UHGV virus genome: UHGV-1364246
DNA from: a virus
DNA: 39,893 bases
Reading direction: 5' to 3' (one strand)
In this document: positions 1,122 to 36,489 of the stretch, piece after piece
How the letters are laid out: every line of letters begins with the position of its first letter
Numbering within the stretch: the stretch's first letter is position 1
Translations under genes and position numbers: made by a program
Notes under the pieces: model-generated
What the model saw: only the letters and a program-made list of their open reading frames with translations
What the model was told of the DNA's origin: nothing
Databases searched by the model: none

Positions 1122-1144
1122 TCTCCCTATAGTGATAGTTTAGT
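1122..1144 (-). promoter_or_regulatory. Phage RNAP promoter upstream of capsid gene (phi10-like, late class, GGGAGA start)
   Basis: Minus-sense CTAAACTATCACTATAGGGAGA; predicted +1 at 1127. Confidence 0.8.
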
Positions 1145-1145
1145 C

Positions 1146-2030
1146 CTACAGGCTCGATGCAGCTACCTTAGCGCGAACTTCCATCGTGTATTTAGCGTCA
1201 CGCAGGTATCGCGGGTCACTCATAGCCTTAATCATGTCAGACTTGGAGCTGAATGCTTCGGTCTGAGGAGCCTTAGGTGCTACCACAGGTTTAGCCTGAG
1301 TGGTGATGGTACGCTGAGGTTTAACACCTACAGCTTTACCCAGAGTCTTGCCAGCCAGATTCAGCAGAGCTTTGGTAGTCGCAATGTCCTTACGAACGAT
1401 AGCAGCTTCCAGTGCCTCACGAGTTGACGGGTCGGTTGACTCAAGGTGAGAAAGGATGCGGTTAAACTGTTCAGCTCCACCAGCGTAGCGAACCACTCCA
1501 GCAGCATACTGTTCAGCCAGTGCTTCCTGACCACGGACAAACGAATCTACGAAACGCTTGGTGTAACCTGCTTCCTGCAACTTAGCGTAGGATGCGTCAG
1601 ACAGCTTACCGTCCTTGGCGTATTCAGCCTTGATAGCGGTAATTTCATCAGCAGTGACCTTGCCAGCTTCCACAGCAGAAGACACCATGTCGTCGAATGC
1701 AGCTTCGTTTTCATCCAGAGCGGTGACACTTTCGGTCAGCTCTTTCGGTGCATCACCCAGTTCGATGAACTCAGGCTGCTCACCATCGTTCTCAGACTCT
1801 TCGTCATCGGACTCGTGGTCTTCTTCACCTTCAGCCTCTTCGACGTTCTCGTCTTCTTCGGTCGCCTCTTCGTTTTCGGCTTCCAGTTGCTTGAAGGTAA
1901 TAGCGTCGTCACCATCACGAACAGCTACGTCCTGTTCAAGCATAGACTTTTGGTGTTCGTTCAGGTCCTCAACGGAACCAGTGATTGCATTAGAGCTAAC
2001 GCCGAACTCGGCATAAACTGATTGAGACAT
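1146..2030 (-). CDS. Scaffolding protein (gp9-like), acidic
   Basis: ATG at 2028-2030 with AAGGAGA upstream; MSQSVYAEFGV... aligns with the T7 gp9 N-terminus; highly acidic; C-terminal MIKAMSDPRY motif conserved. The ORF-track start at 2069 is a GTG extension. Confidence 0.85.
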   Translation of the reverse strand: MSQSVYAEFGVSSNAITGSVEDLNEHQKSMLEQDVAVRDGDDAITFKQLEAENEEATEEDENVEEAEGEEDHESDDEESENDGEQPEFIELGDAPKELTESVTALDENEAAFDDMVSSAVEAGKVTADEITAIKAEYAKDGKLSDASYAKLQEAGYTKRFVDSFVRGQEALAEQYAAGVVRYAGGAEQFNRILSHLESTDPSTREALEAAIVRKDIATTKALLNLAGKTLGKAVGVKPQRTITTQAKPVVAPKAPQTEAFSSKSDMIKAMSDPRYLRDAKYTMEVRAKVAASSL

Positions 2031-2060
2031 TGAGTCGTTCTCCTTTAAGTCGTTAATAGG

Positions 2061-2157
2061 TAGAGCCACTCAAAGTGGGACTTACTGTAGGATGACTTAG
2101 GCTAAATACCCACGGTCATTGTGTGCGCTACAGTAAGTCCCACTTTGAGTGGCTCTA
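2061..2157. repeat. 30-bp perfect inverted repeat (arms 2061-2090 and 2128-2157, 37-nt loop) in the gene 9 leader
   Basis: tagagccactcaaagtgggacttactgtag is the exact reverse complement of ctacagtaagtcccactttgagtggctcta. Confidence 0.9.
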
Positions 2158-2159
2158 GT

Positions 2160-2182
2160 TGTTCCTATAGTGATAGTTTAGG
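2160..2182 (-). promoter_or_regulatory. Phage RNAP promoter (phi9-like), overlapping the portal stop codon
   Basis: Minus-sense CTAAACTATCACTATAGGAACA; the TAA of the portal gene is the first three bases of the TAAAC block. Confidence 0.75.
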
Positions 2183-3746
2183 CTTGAGCCATGTCCTCAC
2201 CAGCTACTTGTCCAACAGTAGCGCCCATGTTAGCACCAGCAGCAGACGCACCGTTGACCACAGCTCCTTGAGCGGATTGTTCTGCCATACGTTGCAACTT
2301 CTCGTCCTGAGTCAGCAGCAAACCGGCAGTGTCAATACCTAAGGCATTCAGCAGTCGCAGCTTCAGGGTAGGCAAGTTAATGTCTGGGTCCTGTTGCAGA
2401 GGCTGTAGCCCGGTCATCATGTTTACTGCCTGAGTCAGCTTCTCTAAGTCTTGACCACGACCTAACGCTTCCAGACCAGTGGATACCGTAGGCTCTACTG
2501 CTTCTTTCGGAAGGTCAGGAATCATGCCAGCAGACTGAAGCTGGTTCATCAGTACACGGACGATAGGTAACTGAAGCTCTTGTGACTGCACTGAGTACAC
2601 GCCACCTAAGGTCGCCTCCAGTTCGCCAGCAACATAACGAATCTCTTCAGCAGTGACTCGCTCGGCATTACGCTGAACAGCACTATTAAGAAGGAAGGCC
2701 CAACCTAAACGTTGCTCGATAGCGTCAGCCACCGACTTAGCAATCGTAAAGTCCTGACCTTTCGTCAGTTGCAGGAAGTTGATGTCCTCAACTCGACCAG
2801 CCACGAACTCACCTGTAGCCGCCTTGTTCAGACGTCTAGGTTGCGTGATACCGTTCGGGTTAACGAGGCCCACCACCTTGGAGGCTACCTTAGCCATTTT
2901 GGTGATAGCTTCTGTAATCGTCTCCAGCGAGTTCAGGTCTCCCAGATACTCCTCGCAGTAAGAACGACCGTAGTCTTCACCATCCAGTCGAACCATTCGT
3001 ACCGGGATGTATGGACATGCAGTCAGCGGGTAGGAACCATCGGTCCCTGCCACCTCAATACCTTCCACTTCCTCGTAGCGAAGATACTCGTCGTCCTGAC
3101 GGTAGATGTGCGTATACACTTCAAGCTCGGTGTCAGGCTCATAGTCGTCTGCGTTGAGTTGAGACTTCACGTCTTCCGGTAGAGCACTAAACGCTACCTT
3201 GTCGAGAGTCACAATCTGCAAGATGTTACCGAACGCATCACGTTGAACAACGTAAGACACTAAGCGGTACATTCGCATTGGACTGTAGGTTCCTTGTTCT
3301 GGAGGAGGGATGTAGAGCAGACAGTTACCTGAGACGATAAGCTGCTTCAAAGCCTCAAACAATGGGACACGGAAACTGTTAGTCTCCATGTAGGCCATCA
3401 ACACACGCTCGACCATAGCCAGCCCTTCGTCAACACGAGCAGCCGCCTCTGAGTCCTGACTCAAGGTCTTGGCCTCATATTCGGAGACTGTCAGTCGCAT
3501 CCACGGTGACTGAGGGAATAACGCCAACATCAGCTTTGCAGCCAAGTTGTTCAAGCAGCGAGCACCCACAGCTTGCCACGGCGTCACGTATTCCGTAGAC
3601 GAGTTGTCGGACTCCTTAGGAAACAGTGACGGGATAGTGACAGCCGCACAGTTCTGAGCGCGCGTCTCATATGGCTGTCTACCGTTCTTCAGTCTGTCAT
3701 AAACTGCCTTCGCGCCTTCAGCAGCAAATCCTTCACGTTCAGCCAT
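2178..3746 (-). CDS. Portal (head-to-tail connector) protein, gp8-like
   Basis: 522 aa; MAEREGFAAEGAKAVYDRLKNGRQPYETRAQNCA... closely matches recalled T7 gp8. Confidence 0.9.
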   Translation of the reverse strand: MAEREGFAAEGAKAVYDRLKNGRQPYETRAQNCAAVTIPSLFPKESDNSSTEYVTPWQAVGARCLNNLAAKLMLALFPQSPWMRLTVSEYEAKTLSQDSEAAARVDEGLAMVERVLMAYMETNSFRVPLFEALKQLIVSGNCLLYIPPPEQGTYSPMRMYRLVSYVVQRDAFGNILQIVTLDKVAFSALPEDVKSQLNADDYEPDTELEVYTHIYRQDDEYLRYEEVEGIEVAGTDGSYPLTACPYIPVRMVRLDGEDYGRSYCEEYLGDLNSLETITEAITKMAKVASKVVGLVNPNGITQPRRLNKAATGEFVAGRVEDINFLQLTKGQDFTIAKSVADAIEQRLGWAFLLNSAVQRNAERVTAEEIRYVAGELEATLGGVYSVQSQELQLPIVRVLMNQLQSAGMIPDLPKEAVEPTVSTGLEALGRGQDLEKLTQAVNMMTGLQPLQQDPDINLPTLKLRLLNALGIDTAGLLLTQDEKLQRMAEQSAQGAVVNGASAAGANMGATVGQVAGEDMAQA

Positions 3747-4149
3747 CTACGTGCCTCCATGTTTTACCTGTTAATACGTCAGACAGCGTTCTCCTGGCTA
3801 CTCCCGGATATGCAGAGGTAAGCTCTGTCGCTGTTAGCCCTGACTTTCGTATGGACTTAACATCTTCGGTTGTTAGCTTGGAGTTGTAATGGCTGTCACT
3901 ATGTGGAGCGTTCTTTCTACCTTTGGAAACACAGTCTACCATGTTATCGCTATAAGTACCAACGCTCAGGTGTTCGGGATTGACGCATAGTCTATTGTCG
4001 CAGGAGTGCATCACCACTAGACCTTCTGGTATGGGACCTTTGTGTTTTAGGTAGGACACTACATGCGCTCCACGTAGCTTACCTGCATACCACTTCAGTC
4101 CATATCCAGCATTATTTACGCAGCCCTTATGCAGTATGCAGTCTGTCAT
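3739..4149 (-). CDS. HNH endonuclease (T7 gene 7.7 position)
   Basis: 136 aa; HKGPIPEGLVVMHSCDNRLCVNPEHL HNH motif. Confidence 0.7.
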   Translation of the reverse strand: MTDCILHKGCVNNAGYGLKWYAGKLRGAHVVSYLKHKGPIPEGLVVMHSCDNRLCVNPEHLSVGTYSDNMVDCVSKGRKNAPHSDSHYNSKLTTEDVKSIRKSGLTATELTSAYPGVARRTLSDVLTGKTWRHVDG

Positions 4150-4394
4150 ATAGAAATACCGCCACCAGAGGTGCGAGAGACCTGAAGGCTACGCTTACCG
4201 GAACGCTTCACTTTCTTCTCGTCAGATGCGGTCGATTCAGTATCCACATCCTCCACTTTGTCGTTCGGTACTTCCACTGGTGCTGCTGGGGTCTGAGCCT
4301 CAACAACCTTAGGCGCATCGTCAGAGCCAAGACCAACGGTCCCTAGCGTACTTTTCACCACTTTCTTGAAGGCCTTACTGATTGATTTACCCAC
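4146..4394 (-). CDS. Tail assembly / virion protein gp7.3-like
   Basis: 82 aa; MGKSISKAFKK...KRSLQVSRTSGGGISI resembles T7 gp7.3 at both ends. Confidence 0.7.
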   Translation of the reverse strand: MGKSISKAFKKVVKSTLGTVGLGSDDAPKVVEAQTPAAPVEVPNDKVEDVDTESTASDEKKVKRSGKRSLQVSRTSGGGISI

Positions 4395-4791
4395 GGTTAA
4401 TCTCCTTAGTTGTTACGATGTCTACCGACCCTGAAACATGCTTGACACGAGAATACCAGCCAAGACCCCAACGCTTGCACTCTTCGTCTATGATGTGTCT
4501 GACAGTCTCAAGAACCTTGCGGGAGGACTGCGAGTCACGACGAATAGCGACGATTGAAAGGTCAAGACCGGGAGTCGGTCGGTGCCAAGATGCGGTAGCC
4601 AGCATGTAGAGATACGCTACTGGTTGACCTGAGACATCGTAGATTGTGTACTCTTCACCGCCGAACTCGTCAGCCATACGGTAAGTATGAGCCTTGAAGT
4701 CCTCGAATGACTTGAAGTTAGACTGCCCGTCTTCCCAGAGGCGACAGGCGCACATGTGGCGACCTTCGCGTGAGTTGAGATATGGTAGCAT
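4387..4791 (-). CDS. gp7-position protein (virion/host-range protein in T7), function uncertain
   Basis: 134 aa ORF in syntenic position between 6.7 and 7.3. Confidence 0.45.
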   Translation of the reverse strand: MLPYLNSREGRHMCACRLWEDGQSNFKSFEDFKAHTYRMADEFGGEEYTIYDVSGQPVAYLYMLATASWHRPTPGLDLSIVAIRRDSQSSRKVLETVRHIIDEECKRWGLGWYSRVKHVSGSVDIVTTKEINRG

Positions 4792-4795
4792 TGTC

Positions 4796-5020
4796 TTACC
4801 CCATGTTTACGCCAGAGGCTCGCATGGCGCGGCTCACTGACGATTTATCTTTTGGTGCAGACTCCTTCTTAACCTTAAGGTCTTTGATACCTTTGGTCTC
4901 GTTTGTGTCTACGTCTGACTCAGCCCCGATGTCAACTGACGCAACTTCCTCACTCAGAGGTGCTGGTTCAGGTGCTTGGACCGAAGGCTTCGGAGTGCTA
5001 ATCTTTGGACTGAAACACAT
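4796..5020 (-). CDS. gp6.7-like small virion protein
   Basis: 74 aa; starts MCFSPKI... like T7 gp6.7; Ser/Lys/acidic-rich. Confidence 0.65.
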   Translation of the reverse strand: MCFSPKISTPKPSVQAPEPAPLSEEVASVDIGAESDVDTNETKGIKDLKVKKESAPKDKSSVSRAMRASGVNMG

Positions 5021-5034
5021 AGTCCCTCCTACAG

Positions 5035-5307: not shown

Positions 5308-5368
5308 CTTGAATCTCCTCTTTAAGTTAAGACTAAAGTCTATCTTATAGTCATATCTTAGGTCCTAA

Positions 5369-5391
5369 AGTCCCTATAGTGATAGTTTAGT
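5369..5391 (-). promoter_or_regulatory. Phage RNAP promoter (phi6.5-like, GGGACT start)
   Basis: Minus-sense CTAAACTATCACTATAGGGACT. Confidence 0.8.
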
Positions 5392-5517
5392 GTTTCACCT
5401 ATGGATGACTATTGGATTGATAGGATATGACTATCGGTTAGACTCAGTGTTTAGGACGGTTGTTCGACCCGAACCACTTGTACATGCAGTAAAGGGCCAG
5501 AAGTCCGGCCCAGTATA

Positions 5518-6808: not shown

Positions 6809-7104
6809 TGCTTGAACCTCACAGTAGCTGGTGAGACACTGAAGAACTCTGCGTCTGAATACTCCTGTACAGCCTCTTTAATCATTGACCGGAAGCTGTC
6901 ACGCAGAATAAACTCAATCACTGCGTCCATACCTTCCGTCAGCCACAGGGTCAGCATATGGCGCTGCTTAGCGTCTGGATTGATTTCACCTGAGTGAACG
7001 CCTTTAGCCAGATCTCGCAGACCCTTAATGATGAATTCCTCTTGGTCTGTAGGAAGTACAGCCTTAAGGTTGAAACTTACGATAGCGCGTTTGGTCATAG
7101 CCAT
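6805..7104 (-). CDS. gp5.5-like protein (H-NS-binding protein in T7)
   Basis: ATG at 7102-7104 (TAATG overlap with DNAP stop, AAGGAG upstream); MAMTKRAIVSFN...SPATV resembles T7 gp5.5. The ORF-track start at 7122 is an extension. Confidence 0.75.
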   Translation of the reverse strand: MAMTKRAIVSFNLKAVLPTDQEEFIIKGLRDLAKGVHSGEINPDAKQRHMLTLWLTEGMDAVIEFILRDSFRSMIKEAVQEYSDAEFFSVSPATVRFKQ

Positions 7105-9272
7105 TAGTGACACTCCTTCCACGTTGGTCCAATCTTACCTTCGGTATCAAGGACACATTTAAAGTTATAGAACTCACCCACCTTACGCATAGCAAGTTGA
7201 GCAATCCTGCGAATATCTTCGGCAATCTCCATGTTCCGAGCTGCAATCTGCAATTCGTCGTGGACCCATGCCATGTACGCAAAGTCTCCTTCCCAGCCGT
7301 GGACATACCCGGCCTCTTCGAGCATACGTTCAGTCTCTACAATCCAGTGCTTACAGACTACCGCACCATCGCCCTGAAGTAATGCGTTCAGTGCTGAGTG
7401 TGGAGACCGTATGTGGATACGTCGACCATCAAGTCCACGCAACCAACGGCGTTTCCACTTAACGATGTTCTCACCATCTACCCACTTAGAGTCTGATATT
7501 AACGTATTACTCACAGCTTCCCTGAGGTCCTTGATGGCTGGTGTACCCTCAATGAATTTCTTCATGAGAGCTGAACCTTCCTTCTTACCACCGCCGACTA
7601 TCAGTCCAATCTTAGCGGCCCCTGCACCATACAGGAACGCATAGATGAACGTCTTAGCGTTGTTGCGGAAAGCATCATGGTCGTGGCTCGACTTATCGCG
7701 TGGGACGTTAGGTGCTAACCCAGCGTTGACTGCGTTTGCCCAGTGGATGTCACCTTCGACTACAGTCTTCGCATATGCACCACCATCAAACGGAGCCGCT
7801 CGGTTCCCTAGACAACGAAGCTCAAGACCTGAAGCATCCACGCCTACTTGAATCCAAGGGTCTGGCTTGCCATCCTTCTTGTTCCACGCTGCACCGAAAG
7901 CACCACGGCAAGTCTCACCATATGGAGCACCGTTAGCCGGGACCTGAGCCATGTTTGGTGAGCTATGGGTCGCACGTCCTGTTACTGCACCACAAGGGTT
8001 GATTGAACCGTGCATACGTCCGTCTGGACCCACAAGTTTCAACCATGCGTTCTTACCTTCAGCAGCCTGACCGATGCGCTTCTGGACCACAAGATACTCA
8101 CGGACCAACTCTACACAAGCCTGAGCCTCTGCGTCTGGTAACTTAACGTGTTCTAACGTCTCGTCATCGACTACAGGTTTCCCAGTGTCAGTGAAGTCCA
8201 CAGGCTCCCAACCACGCTCCATCAGGACTTTCGCTAAGTGGTCTCCGCTTCCCGGATTAAATTCAACGTAAGTGATTGGCGTGAATGGTGCTCCCTCCAT
8301 CGTGTCTCGCGTATCGAGTTCACAAGGTTCGAGACCTAATCGTTGAGCTTTGTTCTTCGGCTTCTTAAAGATGCCACCGACCTTAGGATACACGACCCTC
8401 GGATACTTCGGAAGGTCCTTACCTGTCCGTGGATGCCTGAAGAACTCCTTGCCTCCCTTTGGTGCATACCAGCTACCGAAAGTAGAGCGCAGCTTGTCCA
8501 GTAACTCCGCACGTTTGACAGTGAGTTCACGATATAAGCCTTCGACCATCTCGGTGTTCATCGGATAGCCGTTACGCTCCATCTTCGCACAGGTCCACGC
8601 AGCATCATGTTCCAGACGCAACGCATAAATCTGTTCGAAAGCGAACTGTTCAGACTGGAAGTAATACTTGTCAGTCAGGAACTTCTTGAACAATGCCAGT
8701 GTGACCACAACGTCCTGAACGTTATAGTCCAGCATCTCCTGAGACGGGAACAACCATTCGTCCCCAGCCTTATATTCGATACCTTCGGCCTTGCACTTGG
8801 CAACGTAATCGTGTTTGTACTCACCCTTCATCTCACCGAGACGATAGCCCCAAGCCTCAAGAGACTGGCGTCCCATCATCTTAGGCGGCAGACGTCCAGC
8901 TTTCACCGCGCCTATGTCTGAGAACTTAATGTTGGGATACATCAAGCGGCCCAGCACCAAGGTATCAATCATCTTGTGTTTCGGGAAGTTAAATCGTTTC
9001 CCAAAGTACAGACGTTTCAGCTTGTCAATAGCCGGGACGTCATAGTTGATACCATTGTGGAATACCAGCATACCATCAGGTGATGCGGCAATCTCTTCCA
9101 CTTTATGAACATACTCTTTGAAGCCACCGACGATACCAACCATCGGAGCTACCCCATACTTAAGGGTCTCATTCGACTCGGCGTTAATCAGGACCCCGCA
9201 GTGGAACTGGGAGACTGTATCAAGGAGACCGTTGGTCTCGATGTCAGACCCATATACGTTACTTAAGTCCAT
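7104..9272 (-). CDS. DNA polymerase (gp5-like, family A with 3'-5' exonuclease)
   Basis: 722 aa; MDLSNVYGSDIETNGLL... exo motif; syntenic; size close to T7 gp5. Confidence 0.92.
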   Translation of the reverse strand: MDLSNVYGSDIETNGLLDTVSQFHCGVLINAESNETLKYGVAPMVGIVGGFKEYVHKVEEIAASPDGMLVFHNGINYDVPAIDKLKRLYFGKRFNFPKHKMIDTLVLGRLMYPNIKFSDIGAVKAGRLPPKMMGRQSLEAWGYRLGEMKGEYKHDYVAKCKAEGIEYKAGDEWLFPSQEMLDYNVQDVVVTLALFKKFLTDKYYFQSEQFAFEQIYALRLEHDAAWTCAKMERNGYPMNTEMVEGLYRELTVKRAELLDKLRSTFGSWYAPKGGKEFFRHPRTGKDLPKYPRVVYPKVGGIFKKPKNKAQRLGLEPCELDTRDTMEGAPFTPITYVEFNPGSGDHLAKVLMERGWEPVDFTDTGKPVVDDETLEHVKLPDAEAQACVELVREYLVVQKRIGQAAEGKNAWLKLVGPDGRMHGSINPCGAVTGRATHSSPNMAQVPANGAPYGETCRGAFGAAWNKKDGKPDPWIQVGVDASGLELRCLGNRAAPFDGGAYAKTVVEGDIHWANAVNAGLAPNVPRDKSSHDHDAFRNNAKTFIYAFLYGAGAAKIGLIVGGGKKEGSALMKKFIEGTPAIKDLREAVSNTLISDSKWVDGENIVKWKRRWLRGLDGRRIHIRSPHSALNALLQGDGAVVCKHWIVETERMLEEAGYVHGWEGDFAYMAWVHDELQIAARNMEIAEDIRRIAQLAMRKVGEFYNFKCVLDTEGKIGPTWKECH

Positions 9273-9664
9273 GTTTCTCCTCCAATTGCTCTAGCCAGTG
9301 TGCGGTGACCCACTCCATACTTCTTACCTAAGGAGCGGTGAGTCCAGCCACCTCCTGCGTAAAGCACCTTGGCCTCTTGTACTATTTCAGGTGTAAGCTT
9401 ATAGCTTCCATGTCGCACGCCTTTAGCGGTTCGACCTCTAACGTCTCTATCGTGATTGTTCTCAGCCCTTGTCCCCAGCTCCAAGTGTTCTGGATTGTAG
9501 CACGCTGGGTTGTCGCATTTGTGCCTCACGACCATTCCCTCTGGTATCGGACCATTCGCCTCCTCGAAGGCTATCAGATGCAGTCTACGGACCTTCCCGT
9601 TGACCTTTCGCATACCGTAGCCGAAACTATCTCGACACCCGGTCCACTCAATGCAATCAAACAT
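9263..9664 (-). CDS. HNH endonuclease
   Basis: ATG at 9662-9664 with GGAGGA upstream; GPIPEGMVVRHKCDNPACYNPEHLELGTRAENN HNH motif. The ORF-track start at 9700 is an extension. Confidence 0.7.
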   Translation of the reverse strand: MFDCIEWTGCRDSFGYGMRKVNGKVRRLHLIAFEEANGPIPEGMVVRHKCDNPACYNPEHLELGTRAENNHDRDVRGRTAKGVRHGSYKLTPEIVQEAKVLYAGGGWTHRSLGKKYGVGHRTLARAIGGETWT

Positions 9665-9680
9665 GGTTAATCCTCCGTTT

Positions 9681-9727
9681 AGTCTAATCATAAAGGCCAC
9701 TCGCTGTGAATGACCTTGAGTCTAGAC
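9681..9727 (-). ncRNA. RNase III processing element (R4.7-like)
   Basis: Conserved ~45-nt element ATCATAAAGGCCAC-N10-ATGACCTTGAGTCTA (plus sense), shared with 17041-17089 and 26086-26139; resembles recalled T7 R-site motif GACTCAAGGTC...GTGGCCTTTATG. Confidence 0.6.
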
Positions 9728-9910: not shown

Positions 9911-9925
9911 TTATACTTCTCGTAA

Positions 9926-11629
<1,704 letters not shown>

Positions 11630-11676: not shown

Positions 11677-11699
11677 AATCCCTAAGGTGATAGTTTAGG
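11677..11699 (-). promoter_or_regulatory. Variant phage RNAP promoter (phi4-like), CCTTAGGG instead of CTATAGGG
   Basis: Minus-sense CTAAACTATCACCTTAGGGATT; overlaps the stop codon of the 71-aa gene. Confidence 0.55.
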
Positions 11700-14063: not shown

Positions 14064-14086
14064 CTGTCCTACAGTGATAGTTTAGG
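14064..14086 (-). promoter_or_regulatory. Phage RNAP promoter (phi2.5-like), CTGTAGG variant
   Basis: Minus-sense CTAAACTATCACTGTAGGACAG; overlaps the gp2 stop codon. Confidence 0.65.
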
Positions 14087-15039: not shown

Positions 15040-15062
15040 TTGTCCTATAGTGATAGCTTAGG
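15040..15062 (-). promoter_or_regulatory. Phage RNAP promoter (phi1.5/1.6-like), AAGC variant
   Basis: Minus-sense CTAAGCTATCACTATAGGACAA. Confidence 0.7.
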
Positions 15063-15082: not shown

Positions 15083-15115
15083 GCAAAGAAACCCAGCAGT
15101 CCTAAGACCACTGGG
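15083..15115 (-). terminator. Putative early terminator (TE-like) for host RNAP
   Basis: Minus-sense CCCAGUGG-UCUUAGGA-CUGCUGGG hairpin followed by UUUCUUUGC; sits where T7 TE lies relative to the ligase. Confidence 0.5.
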
Positions 15116-15121
15116 TTGACG

Positions 15122-15583
15122 TTATAATGAATCTCTTAAGGCTACTGCCTCTGCTATGGTATCTAACGTACCGTATGACTTACGCTTTATCCGCAGTTGC
15201 CAGCGACCAGTCCTTGGCTCAAAGTTAACGTACTTCTCACCAGACTTGCAGTGGCTACGGACGGCGACGTTTGTCAGGTTCACTGCCTGAGTTACACACC
15301 TTAGGTTCTCAATTCGGTTATCAGAAGGGTCTCTGTTTATATGGTCAATAACCATTCCTTCCGGTATCTTACTGTGAGTTAGTTCCCAGACTACCCGGTG
15401 TGCAAGGATCTGACCTTTGGTTGTGTTTATAATCCAGTAGCCATCCTTGCGTCGATAGCCTAAGTGTTTACCCTTCAGGTTGGCGACTCCCGAAGGAGCC
15501 GTCCGGTCAACCTTAAATCTTGACTGTAGGATTGTCCTCAGTTCCTCGCCACTGGTCGAATGACGGATGTCGCAAACTTCCAT
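15122..15583 (-). CDS. HNH endonuclease with AP2-like DNA-binding region (free-standing homing-endonuclease-like)
   Basis: 153 aa; HRVVWELTHSKIPEGMVIDHINRDPSDNRIENLR; ATG at 15581-15583 with GGAGGAG upstream; 5' end overlaps the last 71 nt of the ligase gene. Confidence 0.75.
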   Translation of the reverse strand: MEVCDIRHSTSGEELRTILQSRFKVDRTAPSGVANLKGKHLGYRRKDGYWIINTTKGQILAHRVVWELTHSKIPEGMVIDHINRDPSDNRIENLRCVTQAVNLTNVAVRSHCKSGEKYVNFEPRTGRWQLRIKRKSYGTLDTIAEAVALRDSL

Positions 15584-17040: not shown

Positions 17041-17089
17041 AGGGTTAATCATGAAGGCCACGACTCTGAGTCATGACCTTGAGTCTAAT
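17041..17089 (-). ncRNA. RNase III processing element (R1.1-like) between the promoter and gene 1.1
   Basis: Second copy of the ATCATGAAGGCCAC...ATGACCTTGAGTCTA element. Confidence 0.6.
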
Positions 17090-17108
17090 CCTATAGTGAT
17101 AGTTTAGG
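17086..17108 (-). promoter_or_regulatory. Phage RNAP promoter (phi1.1-like)
   Basis: Minus-sense CTAAACTATCACTATAGGATTAGA. Confidence 0.75.
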
Positions 17109-17398: not shown

Positions 17399-20080
17399 TT
17401 AAGCGAATGCAAAGTCTGAAGACAAGATGTCTTCGATATTCAGTTTACCTTTCTTCGGAAGCTCAGGCAACTTGTCGCGCTGACTCTCGTGAAGCTGGTA
17501 TTCGAACTGCTCGTAGAAGTCAAGCAGTACATCGTTGTCGCGGTAGGTCTCGACCATTGTCTCACGGACGCCACGGAACAGATACTCAGCGTCAGCCGGG
17601 ATGGTCCCGAAGCTATCGTGAATCACTGCGAATGACATCACACCATACTTGCGGTGCGTGTGGACTACAGTCTTGCGGAGGTGGCTGCCATCTTGTGAGT
17701 GGACGAAGTTCGGGCTAATGCCTGACTCCTGCTTGTGCTTGTCTAGCTCTTTCTTCGTGCCTTTGTTGACTGTAGGCTGAAGGTTGAATGACCCTAAGAA
17801 CATCAGGTTCAGACGAGTGGTATCCTTCTTGCGGTATTCCTGCCAGACCGGGAAACCATCAGGTGTGACCCAGTGTACTGGAAGGCAAGGCTTCAGGATT
17901 TCACCAGTCTTCTTGTCCTTCACTTCAGCAGCCAGCAGCTTGGCAGCACCTTGAAGCCACTTCATCGCGTCAACCGCAGCAACTACGGTCACACTCACAG
18001 CTTCCCAAATCATCTTAGCCATGAAGCGAGACGCTTGTCTTGGTTCAGTGAACATAGAGCCAGACCCTGAGTCAATCGCTGGCATCACGATGTCCTCGTA
18101 CACTTGGTCTGCGAATCCGTACTCTTTCGACCCGTAGGCCAGAGTCATGACCGAACGCTTAGTTACCTTGCGTGACATGCCGTAAGTCAGCCACTGCCTG
18201 GCCAGCTCTCGTGTCCCCAGCTTGAGGCGCTCGGTAATCTCACCAGTTTTCTTATCCTCGTGAGTCACCATCTCGTTGTCCGTACCGTTAACCAGCAGGA
18301 CTTTAAGCTCCTCCTCAATGCGGTCAGACACGATGCGGTAGATGTCTTGGACCTTACCGGAAGGCGTCAGGTTTACTGCATGTCCACCTATGTGGTCTCG
18401 AAGCATCGCGCTGAAGTGCTGAATCCCAGAGCAGGACCCATCGAAAGCTATCGGCAGCGAGCAGGAGTAAGACAAACCGTGGTGCATTACGCCAGCATAC
18501 TCGAAGCAGAACGCTAGGAAGCAGAACGGAGAGTCTAACTTACCCCACCACTCAATGCTGTCCATCGGTGCCTTAGCGGTAGCCATGATGTTGTCGTGGT
18601 TGTCTTCCACCCACTTGATGCGCTCCTCGAAGGTGACTTTATCAATACCCGCACAGTTTGCACCGTGGACCTTCAGCCATTTGAAACCATCAGCACCAAT
18701 AGGCTTACCGACTGCCAGAGTTAGGAGACCCTTCTGCATGTCGTTACCCTGAGGGTTGAACATCGGCACAGCGTAGACGCGACCACGCCAGTCCATGTTG
18801 TACGGGAACCAGATGGCCTTGAACTGAGAGAACTTGTTCGCTTGGTTAACGATAAAGCTCAGCGACAATCTGCGTGACTGTCGGGCCTTCTCTCGGCGGT
18901 AGATACCAGCAGCAGCCTTCTTCCATTCCTTGAGTTCCTCTTCAGTCTCACCCGCATAGTCTTCAGGCTTCAGCGGCTCCATCTGAGGGATGTCATCAAT
19001 AGGCGTGTTGTTCAACTTCTCTACCATGTTCACCACGTCCAGAACCTTCTTGTTCACCTTCCAAGGCGTATTCTGGATGATATTCACAGCGTCATAGACT
19101 TCAGGCATGTACACGTCTTCATAACGTGCCACCGCAGACTTAGACCCTAAGCGAATCAGTGGTAGTGGTCTGCGACCTTTGGCCCAGTACCCACCTCCTA
19201 CGACACCAGTCCACGGCTTAGGTGGAACGACACAGGGCTGGTAGACTGGAGCGATACCCGCAAGGCTGAATCCTCGTTGTGCCATCTTCTTGACCCAGAA
19301 GTCTGACAGGTGGACCATCTCGACATCAGCCGCTGCATTGCCAGCACCGTAACGCTTAAGCTCGACCAGTTGTGTTGACTGGATGACAATCTCAAGCATC
19401 TTGATTCCAACGTGGACAGCCTCGGTCGGACTCCAAGTTCCCCACGCATCTTCAAGTTGGCCTTGCTCCAGCATGGAGGTCTCAACAGCTTGCATGTAGG
19501 CTTTTTTGTAGGATGCCCCGGCGCGCTTGTTCAGGTTCTCAGCTATCGCCTTCTTGAAGTGCTCCTTCTCCTTATCACGGATGCGACCGAAGCGGATTTC
19601 ATCCTCAAGTGTGCGACCTATCGCGGAGGCCATCGGTGTAATCGGTATCCCTTCAGGCTTGACCAGCTTGGAGAGGATGACCTTCAGTATGATGACCGCA
19701 GCAGACTCACAGGAGATGCGCAGAGAGCGGTCCTTGACGGCCTTCTCTTCAGTGCTCAACATGGTGAACGCTACGCTAGGACGAGAGGTTGACAGCTTAC
19801 CGTCTGGACCTTCGTGCCACTCCTTGACGGCTTGCGCAATCTTAGGGACCAGAGTCTGCATCAAAGGCTTGGCGACCTGATTGTCTGCCAGTTCCCCGCG
19901 CTCAGTCTGTCGCTCAAGGTTCTTGATGAAACGTCGCTCGCCTTCAGTGTATGCCTCATGCTCAAGCTGAAGCTGTTTGACTGCAAGGTCTTGCCCGTAG
20001 TGGTCAGCCAGCAGGTTAAACGGCTCAATGGCGTTCGACACATCAGAGAAGTCGTGTTTGTCAATAGAGATGACGCTCAT
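17399..20080 (-). CDS. DNA-directed RNA polymerase, single-subunit (T7 gene 1-like)
   Basis: 893 aa; collinear with recalled T7 RNAP (PYNMDWRGRVYA, DGSCSGIQHFSAMLRD, HDSFGT, C-terminal FAFA); specificity-loop region reads LMFLGSFNLQPTVN versus T7 LMFLGQFRLQPTIN. Confidence 0.97.
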   Translation of the reverse strand: MSVISIDKHDFSDVSNAIEPFNLLADHYGQDLAVKQLQLEHEAYTEGERRFIKNLERQTERGELADNQVAKPLMQTLVPKIAQAVKEWHEGPDGKLSTSRPSVAFTMLSTEEKAVKDRSLRISCESAAVIILKVILSKLVKPEGIPITPMASAIGRTLEDEIRFGRIRDKEKEHFKKAIAENLNKRAGASYKKAYMQAVETSMLEQGQLEDAWGTWSPTEAVHVGIKMLEIVIQSTQLVELKRYGAGNAAADVEMVHLSDFWVKKMAQRGFSLAGIAPVYQPCVVPPKPWTGVVGGGYWAKGRRPLPLIRLGSKSAVARYEDVYMPEVYDAVNIIQNTPWKVNKKVLDVVNMVEKLNNTPIDDIPQMEPLKPEDYAGETEEELKEWKKAAAGIYRREKARQSRRLSLSFIVNQANKFSQFKAIWFPYNMDWRGRVYAVPMFNPQGNDMQKGLLTLAVGKPIGADGFKWLKVHGANCAGIDKVTFEERIKWVEDNHDNIMATAKAPMDSIEWWGKLDSPFCFLAFCFEYAGVMHHGLSYSCSLPIAFDGSCSGIQHFSAMLRDHIGGHAVNLTPSGKVQDIYRIVSDRIEEELKVLLVNGTDNEMVTHEDKKTGEITERLKLGTRELARQWLTYGMSRKVTKRSVMTLAYGSKEYGFADQVYEDIVMPAIDSGSGSMFTEPRQASRFMAKMIWEAVSVTVVAAVDAMKWLQGAAKLLAAEVKDKKTGEILKPCLPVHWVTPDGFPVWQEYRKKDTTRLNLMFLGSFNLQPTVNKGTKKELDKHKQESGISPNFVHSQDGSHLRKTVVHTHRKYGVMSFAVIHDSFGTIPADAEYLFRGVRETMVETYRDNDVLLDFYEQFEYQLHESQRDKLPELPKKGKLNIEDILSSDFAFA

Positions 20081-20149: not shown

Positions 20150-20172
20150 GAGTCCTATAGTGATAGTTAAGT
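20150..20172 (-). promoter_or_regulatory. Phage-type promoter about 75 bp upstream of the RNAP gene (TTAACTATCACTATAGGACTC)
   Basis: Matches the -17..+2 core; GGA start as in this phage's class-II promoters; followed by a half R-site motif GACTCAAGGTC. Confidence 0.5.
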
Positions 20173-20506: not shown

Positions 20507-20932
20507 TTAATTCTCCTGAAGATATTTGAGTGCGCTTGCCAGAAGCTCTGGCGAATCTTTAAATTTTCCTAGACCAATGTTACACGATGCACACAATAAA
20601 CCTCGCACCTTTCCAGACTTATGACAGTGGTCTACGGCTAACCTTCTACCTGTCTCACAAGCACTACCGCAGATTTTGCACCCACCGCCTTGACCTTCCA
20701 GCATGGTAGTATATTCACCCTCCGTTATTCCATACCTAGACCTCAGGTGATAGCCTCTCTCCGTGCTTCGTGCTCTTTTCAATGAGTCGCCATTCCTGTG
20801 TTGTGACGTAACGACCGATGACACTTGACAGGGCTTGCAATATGTCTGTAGTCCGTCCCGCCTAGCCTTGTTCCTGCCAAACATAGTAGCATCCTTAGTC
20901 TCTCCACATTTGGCGCAGGTCTTTTCCATCAC
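20507..20932 (-). CDS. Endonuclease VII-family (HNH-like) protein with N-terminal zinc ribbon
   Basis: 141 aa; CAKCG...CKPC zinc ribbon, then LAVDHCHKSGKVRGLLCASCNIGLG, typical of the Endonuclease_7 family. Confidence 0.65.
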   Translation of the reverse strand: MMEKTCAKCGETKDATMFGRNKARRDGLQTYCKPCQVSSVVTSQHRNGDSLKRARSTERGYHLRSRYGITEGEYTTMLEGQGGGCKICGSACETGRRLAVDHCHKSGKVRGLLCASCNIGLGKFKDSPELLASALKYLQEN

Positions 20933-22719: not shown

Positions 22720-23045
22720 TGACTGTAGGTGTTGGTGTCTTATGGTTGAGACTGTAGGTTAGTGACTTATGGTCTGATACAGATAGAGACTCAAAGAAGA
22801 CCCATAGTCCCAACCTATCGTCCTGACCATCAGCCATAGCCTAGACCTATCGTAGACCTAACGTCTTGACCATTGGTCCAACCTTATGATAGACTGGGGT
22901 AGGGCCTTTGGTCTGGACTGAAAGAGGGCCTATGGGGAGACTTGAGGTTCTTGAACTGTGAGATGTGGTCTCAAACTTTTGGTCCAAAACTCATCGTCAT
23001 TACTGTAGGTCACAGCCACTGTAGGTCAAGGACCGTAGGTCAGGC
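22720..23045. repeat. Genome-end region: collapsed terminal repeat flanked by arrays of the short direct repeat (C)YGTAGGT; inferred physical left end at about 22963
   Basis: Five copies of ctgtaggt/ccgtaggt (22723, 22752, 23003, 23019, 23033), analogous to T7 ACCTAAAG arrays; minus-sense TCTCACAGT...CCCCATAGG at 22963 downward resembles the first bases of T7. Confidence 0.5.
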
Positions 23046-23547: not shown

Positions 23548-23570
23548 CTTCCCTATAGTGATAGTTAAGT
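23548..23570 (-). promoter_or_regulatory. Phage RNAP promoter near the right end (phiOR-like, GGGAAG start)
   Basis: Minus-sense CTTAACTATCACTATAGGGAAGA. Confidence 0.75.
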
Positions 23571-26950: not shown

Positions 26951-26957
26951 TATTATT

Positions 26958-29144
26958 TTAAAAAGTAGCACCCCTCCATGAGCAATCAACAATCCCACCG
27001 CGCACCATCTTCCACCGCATGTTGTACGATGCCGATGGTACAAGGCGGAGTCCTATTCCCAGATTCGGTGTCAGCTCGACCGCATTTATCCAAGCAGTTG
27101 ATGAGGTTGAAAATGTAAAAGATAGCTGCTCCGTATTTGTGTAAAAATCATCAACGCAAGTTGTTATTGATGCTGTAGTATTTGCAGTATCCGCGCCGTT
27201 AAAATAATACAGCTCAACAGCCACGTACCCGTGGTTCTTCATCCTTGTAGCAAACACGCCTCCGGTGTTTCTTGCCGCGATACCACCCTGTTTGAATGTG
27301 GTGTTACGCTCTCCCTGTGCGCTCCCGGCATTGATAGTCTGGAATGGTGTGACATCGGCGGAACTGTACTTGTCATTGTACAACTGCATAGCCCCACCCA
27401 TTCTATCCGTGTAAAATGCGTACACATCTATGTCATAAGGTTTTTGTCTAGGTACAGAATTGAATTCTTTCCCTAAAGCGTACAAATCAGTATCGGTGGT
27501 CAATGTGTTGTGTGTGTTTACGATGAGCTGTGTTTCCCACGAGAACGCCGCATACTCACCATCGCCCATGTTAAAAAACTTCTTAGCGAAAGCTATCTGT
27601 TTTGCTTTGTTTTTGAAGTTGTCAGAACCACCATTTGCATCAGTTGTAAACAATCCAACGCAAGGTACAATTCTTGATGTAGGGCATTTATACTTTAGCT
27701 CGGCCCACCCAATAACAGCCTGTCGTTTATTCCTGGCATCATCCCAGTCATCATGATAATACGCGTCTGCAAATATAATATCGTATCCAGTACCATCATA
27801 ACCGCCCGGGTGTGTATTTGAATCAAATCCAAAAATACCATGTTCAGCTATGCATAATGATTTTTCTGTGAATGATTTAAATGCCGCGATGCGGGTTTCT
27901 TGCGCCGCCCTGCTAACTGAATTATTTTGTGGTTCATCAAACAAATAATAGCCGATAACACAATCTCTACTGTCTAAGTCGGTAGCCGGAGTGTTTGTCT
28001 GTCCATATATTGGCCCACCAAGTATAAGTTTAAGCCCAACAGCTTCGGCGGCGTTACAGGCTTTTTCCATATTCCCACCGCTTGTCCACGCTTGTCCGTA
28101 GTGTATTAGCGTATTAAACCCGGCAGTTTTTAGTTGTAACATATCACATATATCAAACACGCGATGGACATATACAGCCTTCATGAGCGAATGATTTACA
28201 GGGGTTTCACTGTCAAGCTCACAAGGAACGTTTGGTAGCCTTGTGTATGTGATGGCGGCCTTTCCTGTCAATCTGGCTCCTTCAGGCCAATCAAAACTCG
28301 ATAATGTCGTGGCACCGGATATGTGTGCGTACCCGTGGTCCGATATAGCTGATAGAACCGCGTCTTTACCATCAACACCACTACCATAAACATACCCGTA
28401 ATTAGAGATGTCTGCGCGGTCTAAATTTAATCGTTGTTGAACAGTTAATCCGTTATTAGTCCCAACTAAATTGGAACCATTATTTGTTTTAAGTGCGCTT
28501 CTTAATGAAGCATCACCAACACTAACCCACGCACCTAATCCAATCCCACCGGAAGTTTCAGGAGTTGAACCAGCAGGAACGTTCTTTGGAAGCGTACCAC
28601 CCCAGCGGTAATAATCACCATCCTCTTCCCATAGCAGGACCTCGTTCCATGTTGTAACGTTGAAGCCTTTCTCGAAGGAGCGACGGGTAATATAGCCAAA
28701 TAGACCAGCTGCCTTGATACTCTCAGCAATTCGTCGTGCTTCGTCCTCGCTATCCTTAGCGTTGCCAGCAGAGCTACCAGCAGCATCGGCATATTCCTTC
28801 GCTAAGTCAACCGTTTGGTCTCGACCTTCTTCTGCAATATGGATAGCCTGAAGCTCTGCATTGGTCAGGTCACTAGCTGTCAACACTGAGCCATTCCTGA
28901 AGTCTACCACTAAGTCAGTTCCAGTCTGACGGTGAATACGAACGATGTCGAAACCTGATTGGTCAACCAACATCTCAATCATCGTTGGATTAATGAATCG
29001 GTAATCTCGACCAACTTCCAGTACACGGTTCAGGGTAGGGTTAGAGCTATTCACCAGCGTAACAACAACAAACGTTCTGGCTAGGTAGTCGAACTCAATC
29101 CTGTACTGAGTGTTTCCTGAAGGGAATTGTGTAATCGTGGACAT
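26958..29144 (-). CDS. Tail fiber / tailspike: gp17-like N-terminal adaptor fused to a glycoside-hydrolase-like (putative polysaccharide depolymerase) C-terminal region
   Basis: 728 aa; the N-terminus (up to about LVDFRNGSVLTASDL...AIHIAEEGRD) matches the T7 gp17 anchor; the remainder is unrelated to T7, with a TIM-barrel-like YLFDEPQ motif; coding DNA from about 27000 to 28500 is visibly AT-richer than the rest of the genome. Confidence 0.8.
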   Translation of the reverse strand: MSTITQFPSGNTQYRIEFDYLARTFVVVTLVNSSNPTLNRVLEVGRDYRFINPTMIEMLVDQSGFDIVRIHRQTGTDLVVDFRNGSVLTASDLTNAELQAIHIAEEGRDQTVDLAKEYADAAGSSAGNAKDSEDEARRIAESIKAAGLFGYITRRSFEKGFNVTTWNEVLLWEEDGDYYRWGGTLPKNVPAGSTPETSGGIGLGAWVSVGDASLRSALKTNNGSNLVGTNNGLTVQQRLNLDRADISNYGYVYGSGVDGKDAVLSAISDHGYAHISGATTLSSFDWPEGARLTGKAAITYTRLPNVPCELDSETPVNHSLMKAVYVHRVFDICDMLQLKTAGFNTLIHYGQAWTSGGNMEKACNAAEAVGLKLILGGPIYGQTNTPATDLDSRDCVIGYYLFDEPQNNSVSRAAQETRIAAFKSFTEKSLCIAEHGIFGFDSNTHPGGYDGTGYDIIFADAYYHDDWDDARNKRQAVIGWAELKYKCPTSRIVPCVGLFTTDANGGSDNFKNKAKQIAFAKKFFNMGDGEYAAFSWETQLIVNTHNTLTTDTDLYALGKEFNSVPRQKPYDIDVYAFYTDRMGGAMQLYNDKYSSADVTPFQTINAGSAQGERNTTFKQGGIAARNTGGVFATRMKNHGYVAVELYYFNGADTANTTASITTCVDDFYTNTEQLSFTFSTSSTAWINAVELTPNLGIGLRLVPSASYNMRWKMVRGGIVDCSWRGATF

Positions 29145-29190
29145 TATGCCTCCTTTGTGATTTAAATGGAGACCTATGGTAGCGCCTCCC

Positions 29191-29213
29191 GTTTCCTATA
29201 GTGATAGTTTAGT
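29191..29213 (-). promoter_or_regulatory. Phage RNAP promoter (phi17-like), overlapping the gp16 stop codon
   Basis: Minus-sense CTAAACTATCACTATAGGAAAC. Confidence 0.75.
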
Positions 29214-33096: not shown

Positions 33097-33100
33097 TATG

Positions 33101-35383
33101 TTACTCCTTACCGATTAGTACGTTTGCGATACCCTCCAGTGAGACGTCATTGTACATCCCACCGCGCTTCTCGATGTTGGCCTCTCGGTCAGCTCGACGT
33201 TTGTCACCAGCAGCTTTAGTCCCGACGATACGCGCTCGCTTGTTAGCGTCACGTTCTGCCTGAGCATATGCGGCATCTTGTGCCTTCTGCTGTTGTTCGC
33301 GATAGAGTTTACCTACAAGTTCTTTATCGTACCGAATACGAATAGTCCCCGTAGCGTCTTGGAGGAAGATAGAGCCGTTCTGTTCAACAACGGACAACTG
33401 AGAGTTAACTACCCAAGGGTTAGCCTTAATGAGCTGCTTACGAGCGGTGTCTATAATGTCTCGACCCACCTGCCACGACTCTGGGTTATCCCCGACCATA
33501 AGCTGGTGCTTAGATACCATGCCGATTGACTTACCGTCAGAACCTTCAGACTGGAACGTTACGGTGTTCTCGTTAAGCCAGCGTTGAGTCTGCTGAGTCG
33601 CAGCGTCAGCGTTACCTGTACGATAGTACCATGAGTCCCAGACCTTACGAGCACTTGCATCCAGAGACGTTGGGAGGCGAGACAACTGGGCGTTCTTGGA
33701 GTCGTTCTTCAACTCCTGCCACGCCTTGTCTGACTCCATGCGCATCTCACGGCTTTGACTTGCAGCTTGCTTATCAGCTTCAATCATCGTCTGAGGGTCC
33801 AGACCCATCTTGTCCATCTGGTCGAACGTAGAGAACAACTGAGCTTGGTCAGGATACAGAGCAGCAAAACTTGAAGGGTCCTGAGTATAGGCACGACGAA
33901 GAGATTCGAAGCGTTTCATCTTGTCTGGGTCGTACTGTCCACGGATGACCGCAGCTTGCCACTCACCAGCAGCGTCCTGAGTCAGCGTCTGGAAGGCATT
34001 ACGGAACGGACCGTTGTTAGTGTCAGCTCTTAACAATGCCACCTTCTGAGCGTCCTTAGCGGCTTCAGGGATGTCCATCTGGTCAATCTGCTGTAACTTG
34101 GCAGACGCATAGTTGTTCATATCTGAACGCTTGAACTCACCTGTAGCGTCAGAGACCGGAAGGTCCTCATAGTTGGTGGACACATTGTCCCCAGCCAGAC
34201 GTCGCTGATACACTTGGTCGATGACCAGTTGCTTGTTCTGAGTCTGGATTAACTTAGTGTTCTCCTTCGCCTGTTCAGCGGACTTACGCTTGACCGCTTC
34301 CAGTAAGCTCGCTTCGGCATTAATAAGCATCTGACGCTGAGGCGTGAGTTCTTCACCCGGCTGAAGCAGGTTGTTCTGCTCCTTGAGTTTCTGAATCTGG
34401 GCAAGACCGATGGTTGGGTCGTCCTGAAGAATAGCAGACTGAACGCCTAACGCTAAGTCCTCCTGATACTTAGCCACCAGCTTGTACTCAGTACCTTGAG
34501 CCTCAACCACAGCAGCATTGAAGACGTCAGGGCCTACAATCTCTTCGATGGTAGCATCAATACCGTTAAGGGTGATACGCTCGCCCCGGACTTGCTGTAG
34601 GAAGTTTGAGCCTCCTGACTTCTGGATTGCGTCACGGACAGTCTGGGTGATGACCTCTCGTGCTCGCTGGTCCGAAGGGATAGCAGCAGTCGTCAGCCCA
34701 TCCCGAAGGTAGGCCATGAATGTCTTTCCAGACTCAGGCGAACGCATCAGGTCCCCATCGTTAAGGAACGAGTTCATCTCAATACGAGTGTTCAACATTG
34801 CTGTCTCTTCAGACTGCTTGCTGAAATACTTATTGAAAGACCCATAGATAGCGATGTTGCGGTCTGTGATGTTATCGTTGAACCCGCGCTGAAAGAACTC
34901 GTCGGTAGGGTTAATACCCGCCTCTTCAGCATAGGACTTAGCGGCGTCCTGAAGTCGCTGGTGGCGATACTCTTCCATGTCCTGACGTGTGCGGAACTCA
35001 CCGTTCTGAATCTTAACGTTAATCTCATCATCCACCGCAAAGGCAGCGTTGCGACCTGTCTTGACGCGAAGTGCTTCCATAGCGTAAGGGTCGTCCTGAT
35101 ACAGCAGTGTGCCGTTCTGGATAGCCTCACGTCTTTGCTGAGGTGTCAGCTTACGGATAATCTCGTTAGACCGCTCGTCGGCCCGTGTCTTCTCCTCGTC
35201 TTTGAACTGCTTGTATAATCCAGTACCAGACTCAACGAAGTTGGTTAACGCCCGAGCCAGACCTGAGTCACCAGTTGGAGCCTGAACGCTGGCTGCTTGA
35301 TAGTTGACGGCGATAGTTTTACCCGGCGCTCTGCCACGACCCATAGTCCGATTAGCCAGAGCTGATTCAATATTACTAGCCAT
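33101..35383 (-). CDS. Internal virion core protein gp15-like
   Basis: 760 aa; syntenic, size close to T7 gp15. Confidence 0.8.
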   Translation of the reverse strand: MASNIESALANRTMGRGRAPGKTIAVNYQAASVQAPTGDSGLARALTNFVESGTGLYKQFKDEEKTRADERSNEIIRKLTPQQRREAIQNGTLLYQDDPYAMEALRVKTGRNAAFAVDDEINVKIQNGEFRTRQDMEEYRHQRLQDAAKSYAEEAGINPTDEFFQRGFNDNITDRNIAIYGSFNKYFSKQSEETAMLNTRIEMNSFLNDGDLMRSPESGKTFMAYLRDGLTTAAIPSDQRAREVITQTVRDAIQKSGGSNFLQQVRGERITLNGIDATIEEIVGPDVFNAAVVEAQGTEYKLVAKYQEDLALGVQSAILQDDPTIGLAQIQKLKEQNNLLQPGEELTPQRQMLINAEASLLEAVKRKSAEQAKENTKLIQTQNKQLVIDQVYQRRLAGDNVSTNYEDLPVSDATGEFKRSDMNNYASAKLQQIDQMDIPEAAKDAQKVALLRADTNNGPFRNAFQTLTQDAAGEWQAAVIRGQYDPDKMKRFESLRRAYTQDPSSFAALYPDQAQLFSTFDQMDKMGLDPQTMIEADKQAASQSREMRMESDKAWQELKNDSKNAQLSRLPTSLDASARKVWDSWYYRTGNADAATQQTQRWLNENTVTFQSEGSDGKSIGMVSKHQLMVGDNPESWQVGRDIIDTARKQLIKANPWVVNSQLSVVEQNGSIFLQDATGTIRIRYDKELVGKLYREQQQKAQDAAYAQAERDANKRARIVGTKAAGDKRRADREANIEKRGGMYNDVSLEGIANVLIGKE

Positions 35384-35394
35384 TAGTCCTCCTC

Positions 35395-35982
35395 TTAGCT
35401 ATGACCTGTAGGTGTGCCTTTGGCAGCACCAATCGGCGCAGCACCACCAGAGTTTGAAGGTCCGGCGATAGATTTACCAGCAGCGTACCCTTGCATCCCG
35501 GCGTTAGCAACATTAAGCGCATGAGCTAGTGGGCTGGTCTTGATGATTTTACCTTGACCACGGATAGCAGACTTGGTGTTCTCAATGTTGGCGATACGGT
35601 TCCCGAAGATAGCCGCATAGTCACGGTTGTAGCTTTCGGTAATCCCGGCTCTCTCCTTGACTGTGTCTCCCTCGACCTGACGTTCAATCCTGTCCATAGA
35701 GTTACCTTCCAGACCGGACTCAGCTACCGCAGCTCGGACCATGCCCTGATTGCGGATACCATTTAACGTGGTCTCTGTCAGTTCAGCCATCTGCTGCTCC
35801 TTCAGGTCTCGCTCCTGCATCTTCAGGTTGGCGTCAGAGTAGTTCATCTGCTTAACCATCTCCTGAGCCTGACGGTTCTGAGCGTCGATAGCAGCACCCT
35901 CAGCTTTGGCCTGACTAGAAGCGGACATAGCGGCACCAGCTACAGCCATAATACCCATGCCGATACTTACTGGCTCGCACAT
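35395..35982 (-). CDS. Internal virion protein gp14-like
   Basis: 195 aa; begins MC...; MDRIERQVEGD...NRDYAAIFG resembles recalled T7 gp14. Confidence 0.8.
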   Translation of the reverse strand: MCEPVSIGMGIMAVAGAAMSASSQAKAEGAAIDAQNRQAQEMVKQMNYSDANLKMQERDLKEQQMAELTETTLNGIRNQGMVRAAVAESGLEGNSMDRIERQVEGDTVKERAGITESYNRDYAAIFGNRIANIENTKSAIRGQGKIIKTSPLAHALNVANAGMQGYAAGKSIAGPSNSGGAAPIGAAKGTPTGHS

Positions 35983-36437
35983 ACGTCCTCCTTAGAGATA
36001 GTGAATAGTTGAAAACGCTCACCAGTTACCGGGCTTACAGTCCAATCATCATGGAATTTAGCGCCAAGCAACTTCAAGAATTTAATGTGAGACTTATTGC
36101 CTGACCACACGTAGTTCCAGATGGTCCCGTATTGGTCTAACATTAAGTCCCTGTACTCAGAGATACGCTTTATGAACTCTCGCTTCTCTTTAGGTCTCAG
36201 CTTATAGACCAGACCGGAAGTCAAGAACCATACGTTATCCCCTTGGTTTCCACCATAGGCAAACACTTCGCCTACACCGTTCGTTAAAACCACAGATGAC
36301 GGAGATAGGTGCTTAAGCAGTCTTTCAGAGAGACCCACGGTTGACCCATAGTTTGCTTTGCACTCATTAACATCATCTGCTGAAAGATGCCACAGAAAGT
36401 AGTGGACATCTGGTTCCGTAGCCTTGCGAATATACAT
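35967..36437 (-). CDS. Internal virion protein gp13-like
   Basis: 156 aa; syntenic, directly downstream of a late promoter; overlaps the gp14 start. Confidence 0.6.
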   Translation of the reverse strand: MYIRKATEPDVHYFLWHLSADDVNECKANYGSTVGLSERLLKHLSPSSVVLTNGVGEVFAYGGNQGDNVWFLTSGLVYKLRPKEKREFIKRISEYRDLMLDQYGTIWNYVWSGNKSHIKFLKLLGAKFHDDWTVSPVTGERFQLFTISKEDVCASQ

Positions 36438-36466
36438 AAAGTCTCCTTATAACCTTAAGGGCCTAT

Positions 36467-36489
36467 AGTCCCTATAGTGATAGTTAAGG
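36467..36489 (-). promoter_or_regulatory. Phage RNAP promoter (phi13-like, GGGACT start)
   Basis: Minus-sense CTTAACTATCACTATAGGGACTATAGG; a partial duplicate of the core (CTATAGG) follows. Confidence 0.75.

Follow-up and report, generated by a model that had tools for sequence, protein, structure and literature searches.

The presence of eleven similar promoter-like sites on one strand of a phage genome, which also encodes a single-subunit RNA polymerase (RNAP), raises the question of whether this promoter set defines a polymerase specificity distinct from that of T7, as proposed in a first-pass annotation, and whether such a specificity would be new. The sites are located in a 39,893-nt stretch of viral DNA (UHGV-1364246), which was analyzed at its full length and is called here the window. 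Our reading, to which we assign a probability of about 95%, is that the window is a complete, circularly permuted Kayfunavirus genome (K1F-like, T7 group) encoded on the minus strand, and that the eleven sites are the known K1F-type phage RNAP promoters; no feature of the sequence speaks against this reading. Many Kayfunavirus records matched the first 25 kb of the window with 93-95% nucleotide identity and 81-88% coverage, and the comparison by blastn showed that the minus strand of the window is collinear with K1F (NC_007456), although circularly permuted; hence, both the nucleotide identity and the common gene order place the phage in this genus. The terminal repeat of about 178 bp is present as a single copy near 22786-22963, which means that the genome is collapsed. 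The capsid gene (347 aa) spans the window boundary (1019..1, then 39893..39869), and it is absent from the list of open reading frames because it crosses this boundary. The phage is one more member of a well-sampled genus. A plus-strand open reading frame of 337 aa, at 30-1043, is exactly antisense to the capsid gene, and it is most likely a shadow reading frame of a codon-biased, highly expressed gene. Off-diagonal blastn matches of 65-75% identity had suggested internal repeats, but this was rejected, as the matches belonged to T7 and T3 records.

The window was searched on both strands for TAAACTATCACTATAGG, with a tolerance of three mismatches. The data showed exactly eleven matches, each with at most 2 mismatches and all of them on the minus strand, while shuffled sequence gave a mean of 0.09 matches and a maximum of 2. 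The eleven minus-strand sites proposed in the first-pass annotation were in this way recovered at the same positions, and the coordinates that it had given as promoter cores are those of the +1 G of each site (see the table). The sites were extracted from −25 to +15, and a weight matrix was built from all eleven over −20 to +8. The scan of the genome with this matrix, which had been proposed as a check of the promoter set, separated the sites cleanly from the rest of the sequence: they scored 31-42 bits (22.6-39.8 bits when each was left out of the matrix in turn), as compared to 15.2 bits for the runner-up position on either strand, which leaves a 16-bit gap, and the best score on the plus strand was 5.3 bits. 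When further, weaker promoters were sought in the same scan, it returned a single 15-bit relic, with +1 at 5345, and nothing else. This degenerate promoter-like sequence, CCTAAGATATGACTATA-AG, is located at 5325-5364 on the minus strand, 29 nt downstream of the phi6.5 start, and it is conserved in K1F and EcoDS1. A role for it in an RNA hairpin of the phi6.5 leader was also considered and rejected, as the leader folded no better than shuffled sequences (z = 0.01).

The eleven sites follow the T7 group arrangement. Every site (11/11) is intergenic or at a gene end, with ten of them before genes 1, 1.1, 1.6, 2.5, 4, 6.5, 9, 10, 13, and 17 and one at the right genome end, and all except the gene 1 site sit where T7 has phage promoters. 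All 11 sites recur in K1F, where they are syntenic with those of the window and carry the same variant bases. In EcoDS1 (NC_011042), eleven 23-bp phage promoters are annotated before the same ten genes and as phiOR, and they match those of the window except at two positions, which are −17 of the phi1.1-type promoter (T in EcoDS1, C in the window) and +6 of the gene 4 promoter (G in EcoDS1, T in the window). The promoter number and placement are therefore those of the K1F-type reference genomes. T7 (NC_001604) shares with the window the RNAP fold family, the catalytic residues, the −7 to +2 promoter core, and the genome layout, but it has 17 phage promoters instead of 11. The window also differs from T7 in having a phage promoter immediately upstream of gene 1 and in being without phiOL near the left end; among the eleven sites of the genome scan there is no phage promoter at the left genome end and no phiOL equivalent. 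A phage promoter directly before gene 1 is also annotated in EcoDS1, while the only promoter there in T7 and T3 is a host promoter. Judged from its position, this promoter would allow positive autoregulation of the polymerase. The proposal that late promoters start with GGGA and class-II promoters with GGA held in 8 of the 11 sites and failed in three. Four of the five class-II promoters start with GGA, the exception being the gene 4 promoter (GGGA), and GGGA is the start of four of the six late and right-end promoters, with phi9 and phi17 as the exceptions (both GGAA).

Features of the window that are discussed in the text (promoters are given from −17 to +6)
Feature	Coordinates	Strand	+1	Start	Remarks
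Gene 1, single-subunit T7-like RNA polymerase, 893 aa	17399..20080	−			Pfam domains and alignment
Specificity loop core RLNLMFLGSFNLQPTV (T7 residues 746-761)	17768..17815	−			Translation and ungapped alignment; identical to K1F
AT-rich recognition loop region, WHEGPDGKLSTSRPSVAF followed by 11-residue insertion	19715..19819	−			Alignment; T7 R96 and K98 both Ser
Gene 1 promoter	20150..20172	−	20155	GGAC	75 nt upstream of RNAP start codon; identical to EcoDS1 "phi" at 2244-2266
phi1.1-type promoter	17086..17108	−	17091	GGAT	Downstream of gene 1
phi1.6 promoter	15040..15062	−	15045	GGAC	G at −12; identical to EcoDS1 phi1.6
phi2.5 promoter	14064..14086	−	14069	GGAC	G at −3; identical to EcoDS1 phi2.5
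Gene 4 (primase/helicase) promoter	11677..11699	−	11682	GGGA	Before gene; C at −4, T at −3
phi6.5 promoter	5369..5391	−	5374	GGGA	
phi9 promoter	2160..2182	−	2165	GGAA	Overlaps portal gene stop codon
phi10 promoter	1122..1144	−	1127	GGGAGA	Before capsid gene; start as in T7 phi10
phi13 promoter	36467..36489	−	36472	GGGA	
phi17 promoter	29191..29213	−	29196	GGAA	Overlaps gene 16 end
phiOR promoter	23548..23570	−	23553	GGGA	Downstream of terminase gene, near right genome end
Terminator-like hairpin and T-run after capsid gene	39703..39720	−			Position of T7 late terminator Tphi; EcoDS1 annotates terminator there
Terminator-like hairpin just upstream of phi1.6	15090-15117	−			Position of T7 early terminator TE

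The comparison of the promoter sequences with those of T7 showed where the two sets diverge. The extended 23-bp consensus of the eleven promoters is (A/C)CT(A/T)AACTATCACTATA-GG(G/A), and every site has the same base at positions −16, −15, −13, −11 to −5, −2, −1, +1, and +2. The core from −7 to +2, CACTATAGG, is identical to that of the T7 promoters. Numbered from the start site, bases −12 to −9 read ACTA instead of the CGAC of T7, as had been proposed, and the segment from −12 to −8, which differs from T7 at four of its five positions, is ACTAT in ten sites and GCTAT in one, the counterparts of which in K1F and EcoDS1 are also GCTAT. A further difference, overlooked in the first-pass annotation, is located upstream, where positions −17 to −14 read (A/C)CT(A/T) instead of the TAAT of T7. 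When up to three mismatches were allowed, the T7 consensus had no match in the window, and the window-type consensus had none in the T7 genome.

To relate these differences to the polymerase, the product of gene 1 was aligned with the RNAPs of T7, T3, and K1F. The protein contains the RNA_pol (PF00940, E = 1.9e-106) and RPOL_N (PF14700, E = 1.2e-14) domains, which identify it as a T7-like RNAP, and all five catalytic residues compared (D537, K631, Y639, H811, and D812 in T7 numbering) are identical. It is 98.9% identical to the K1F RNAP and 63.9% identical to the T7 and T3 RNAPs, and its gene is at the DNA level about 96% identical to the RNAP genes of many Kayfunavirus records. Ten of the 893 residues differ from the K1F enzyme, none of them in the specificity loop, in the AT-rich recognition loop, or among the five catalytic residues. 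The specificity loop of T7, RLNLMFLGQFRLQPTI, pairs with that of the window and K1F (RLNLMFLGSFNLQPTV) with zero gaps, and the changes from T7 in this segment are Q754S, R756N, and I761V, with R746, N748, and Q758 retained. This agrees with the earlier claim that the residue aligned with T7 R756 is Asn and that the equivalents of N748 and Q758 are conserved; the possibility that R756 would prove to be conserved after correct gapping was checked by the same alignment, in which the residue is Asn. The combination of N748, N756, and Q758 with S754 and V761 makes the loop a K1F-type one. A 72-aa segment containing the loop was shared by 133 phage records at 99% identity or more and by a further 72 at 95-99%, while only 18 records fell between 80 and 95% identity, before the T7-like group near 79%. 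Hence, the K1F-type loop is a common and discrete class.

In the likely course of infection, drawn by analogy to T7 biology, the host polymerase would transcribe the early region, including gene 1, and the phage polymerase would then initiate at the eleven 23-bp promoters. The initiation part of these promoters (−7 to +2) has the same sequence as in T7, and the binding part (−12 to −9) has ACTA in place of CGAC. In the T7 enzyme R756 contacts the G of the −9 base pair. The loss of this arginine would go together with the C-to-A change at −9, and the retained R746 and Q758 would go with the unchanged positions −7 and −8. In the T7 promoter complex R746, N748, R756, and Q758 make base-specific contacts in the major groove (PMC11880802). 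A reading in which one residue corresponds to one base fails, however, for the switch as a whole, because N748 is kept although −11 and −10 differ from T7. We infer that the loop context matters beyond single residue-base pairs.

The same loop and the same promoter bases have been studied before in an engineered form. Temme et al. (2012) identified a K1F subfamily by loop alignment and promoter prediction, grafted the K1F loop (Q744-I761) into T7 RNAP, and gave the T7 promoter the consensus of the subfamily at −12 to −7 (PMC3458549). The T7 RNAP with the K1F loop was active on the ACTATC promoter, with 17-fold induction, and it was orthogonal to the T7, T3, and N4 variants (PMC3458549). In a 2025 study in NAR, T7-like polymerases are sorted into named specificity clusters, of which K1F is one, and the variant "754S, 756N, 761V" is listed in Table 2 with the promoter ACTAT (PMC11880802). 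The engineered pair has the same loop residues at 754, 756, and 761 and the same ACTATC at −12 to −7 as the window, and the published experiments with this loop show that Q754S, R756N, and I761V suffice to retarget T7 RNAP to ACTAT with little cross-talk. Some details of these systems are worth noting for comparison: a split-polymerase version with the K1F loop required the additional mutation M750R for good activity (PMC4299498), and the native K1F RNAP with its promoter PK1F has been used for expression and for targeted mutagenesis as a mutator, where it proved highly specific in a comparison that covered the MmP1 and VP4 systems rather than T7 (PMC12218169). The proposed orthogonality of the pair to T7 is thus supported by the published graft of the same loop and the ACTAT promoter (PMC3458549, PMC11880802). 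The proposal that the promoter set defines an RNAP specificity distinct from T7 also stands, as the recognition region differs in a way that matches R756N, but the class is already known: the promoter-polymerase pair is the K1F/Kayfunavirus pair, and there is no new specificity. The earlier knowledge of these promoters rests on the EcoDS1 annotation and on the engineering papers. Public phage records already carry annotations of the K1F-type pair, and synthetic biologists have used it as a standard orthogonal part since 2012. The use of the result is the confident labelling of the eleven promoters and the polymerase in the genome annotation. It also means that a real specificity switch could be inferred from raw sequence alone.

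The upstream part of the promoters allows a different view of how the native enzyme makes this switch. It could lie mainly upstream, with the AT-rich recognition loop reading (A/C)CT(A/T) at −17 to −14 and with R756N being secondary. This view, which we consider unlikely, would account for the fact that C−16 and T−15, within the non-AT upstream element, are invariant in all eleven promoters, and that T7 R96 and K98 are both replaced by Ser and followed by an insertion of 11 residues, which is common to the window and K1F. On the other hand, the three loop substitutions are enough to redirect T7 RNAP to ACTAT on a promoter that keeps the T7 upstream TAATA (PMC11880802, PMC3458549), and therefore the loop is sufficient for the switch at −12 to −8. 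The specificity loop remains in our reading the main determinant of this switch, to which the upstream difference may be added. The −17 to −14 difference would pair with the changes in the AT-rich recognition loop, from which R96 and K98 are missing and to which 11 residues have been added, and it is possible, although we hold it only tentatively, that C−16 and T−15 are read by this altered loop as a second promoter determinant of the native polymerase. The engineered pair differs from the native one in just these features, since its scaffold is that of T7 and its promoter retains the upstream TAATA of T7, where the native promoters have (A/C)CT(A/T)A, and its AT-rich recognition loop is unlike that of the native enzyme. 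If there is such an upstream determinant, the discrimination of the native pair against T7 promoters would exceed that of the published loop graft, and the contact mode would be unlike any in the T7 structure. A narrow literature search found no published analysis of the −17 to −14 difference, and the AT-rich recognition loop is absent from the text of PMC11880802. The upstream difference together with this loop is the only part of the system with some room for a new result.

The extent of the orthogonality could also be doubted. It could be argued that the polymerase is not meaningfully orthogonal to T7 and that the promoter differences are drift tolerated by both enzymes, because the grafted T3/K1F/N4 set showed relatively high non-cognate activity and a worst-case orthogonality of only 8-fold (PMC11880802), and because the initiation region is the same as that of T7. 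This is very improbable in view of the report of Temme et al. that each grafted RNAP was highly orthogonal (PMC3458549), the failure of either genome to contain the promoter type of the other within three mismatches, and the differences at four of five positions at −12 to −8 and again at −17 to −14. That the eleven repeats are not promoters at all but another signal, for RNA processing, replication or packaging, or recombination hot spots, would have in its favor only their repetition and strand bias and can be given almost no weight, as their −7 to +2 core is identical to that of T7 promoters, they sit at T7 promoter positions, EcoDS1 annotates them as promoters, the K1F-loop T7 RNAP expresses genes from a T7-frame promoter with ACTATC at −12 to −7 (PMC3458549), and the native K1F RNAP does so from PK1F (PMC12218169).

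Outside the promoter system, the recognition of the sites as K1F-type promoters leaves several features of this genome to be described. Two terminator-like hairpins occur at positions equivalent to those of the T7 terminators (see the table). A scan of the early region for sigma-70 promoters gave 9 sites, as compared to 5.1 expected, an excess that is uninformative by itself; a sigma-70-like site with a 10/12 match is located at 22454-22426 on the minus strand, and EcoDS1 has three host promoters annotated in the equivalent region. The differences between the window and K1F are found in the C-terminal part of the tailspike, in an extra HNH gene at 3739-4149, in an insertion in the DNA polymerase gene, and in several early genes, and none of them touches the promoter system. 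Four endonuclease reading frames, all on the minus strand (3739-4149, 9263-9700, 15122-15583, and 20507-20932), encode three HNH_3 homing endonucleases and one Endonuclease VII, and the first of them is the HNH gene without a counterpart in K1F. The HNH-containing insertion of the K1F DNA polymerase gene is missing in the window, where this gene is intact (7104-9272). The tailspike (26958-29144, minus strand) has a T7-type N-terminal adaptor and a Tail_spike_N domain. The last 1.5 kb of its gene is 90% identical to three phage records only (two of PE3-1, and JSS1; host E. coli O153), and the C-terminal part differs from the K1F endosialidase. The tailspike is without the K1F endosialidase, and therefore the host of this phage is probably other than a K1 strain.
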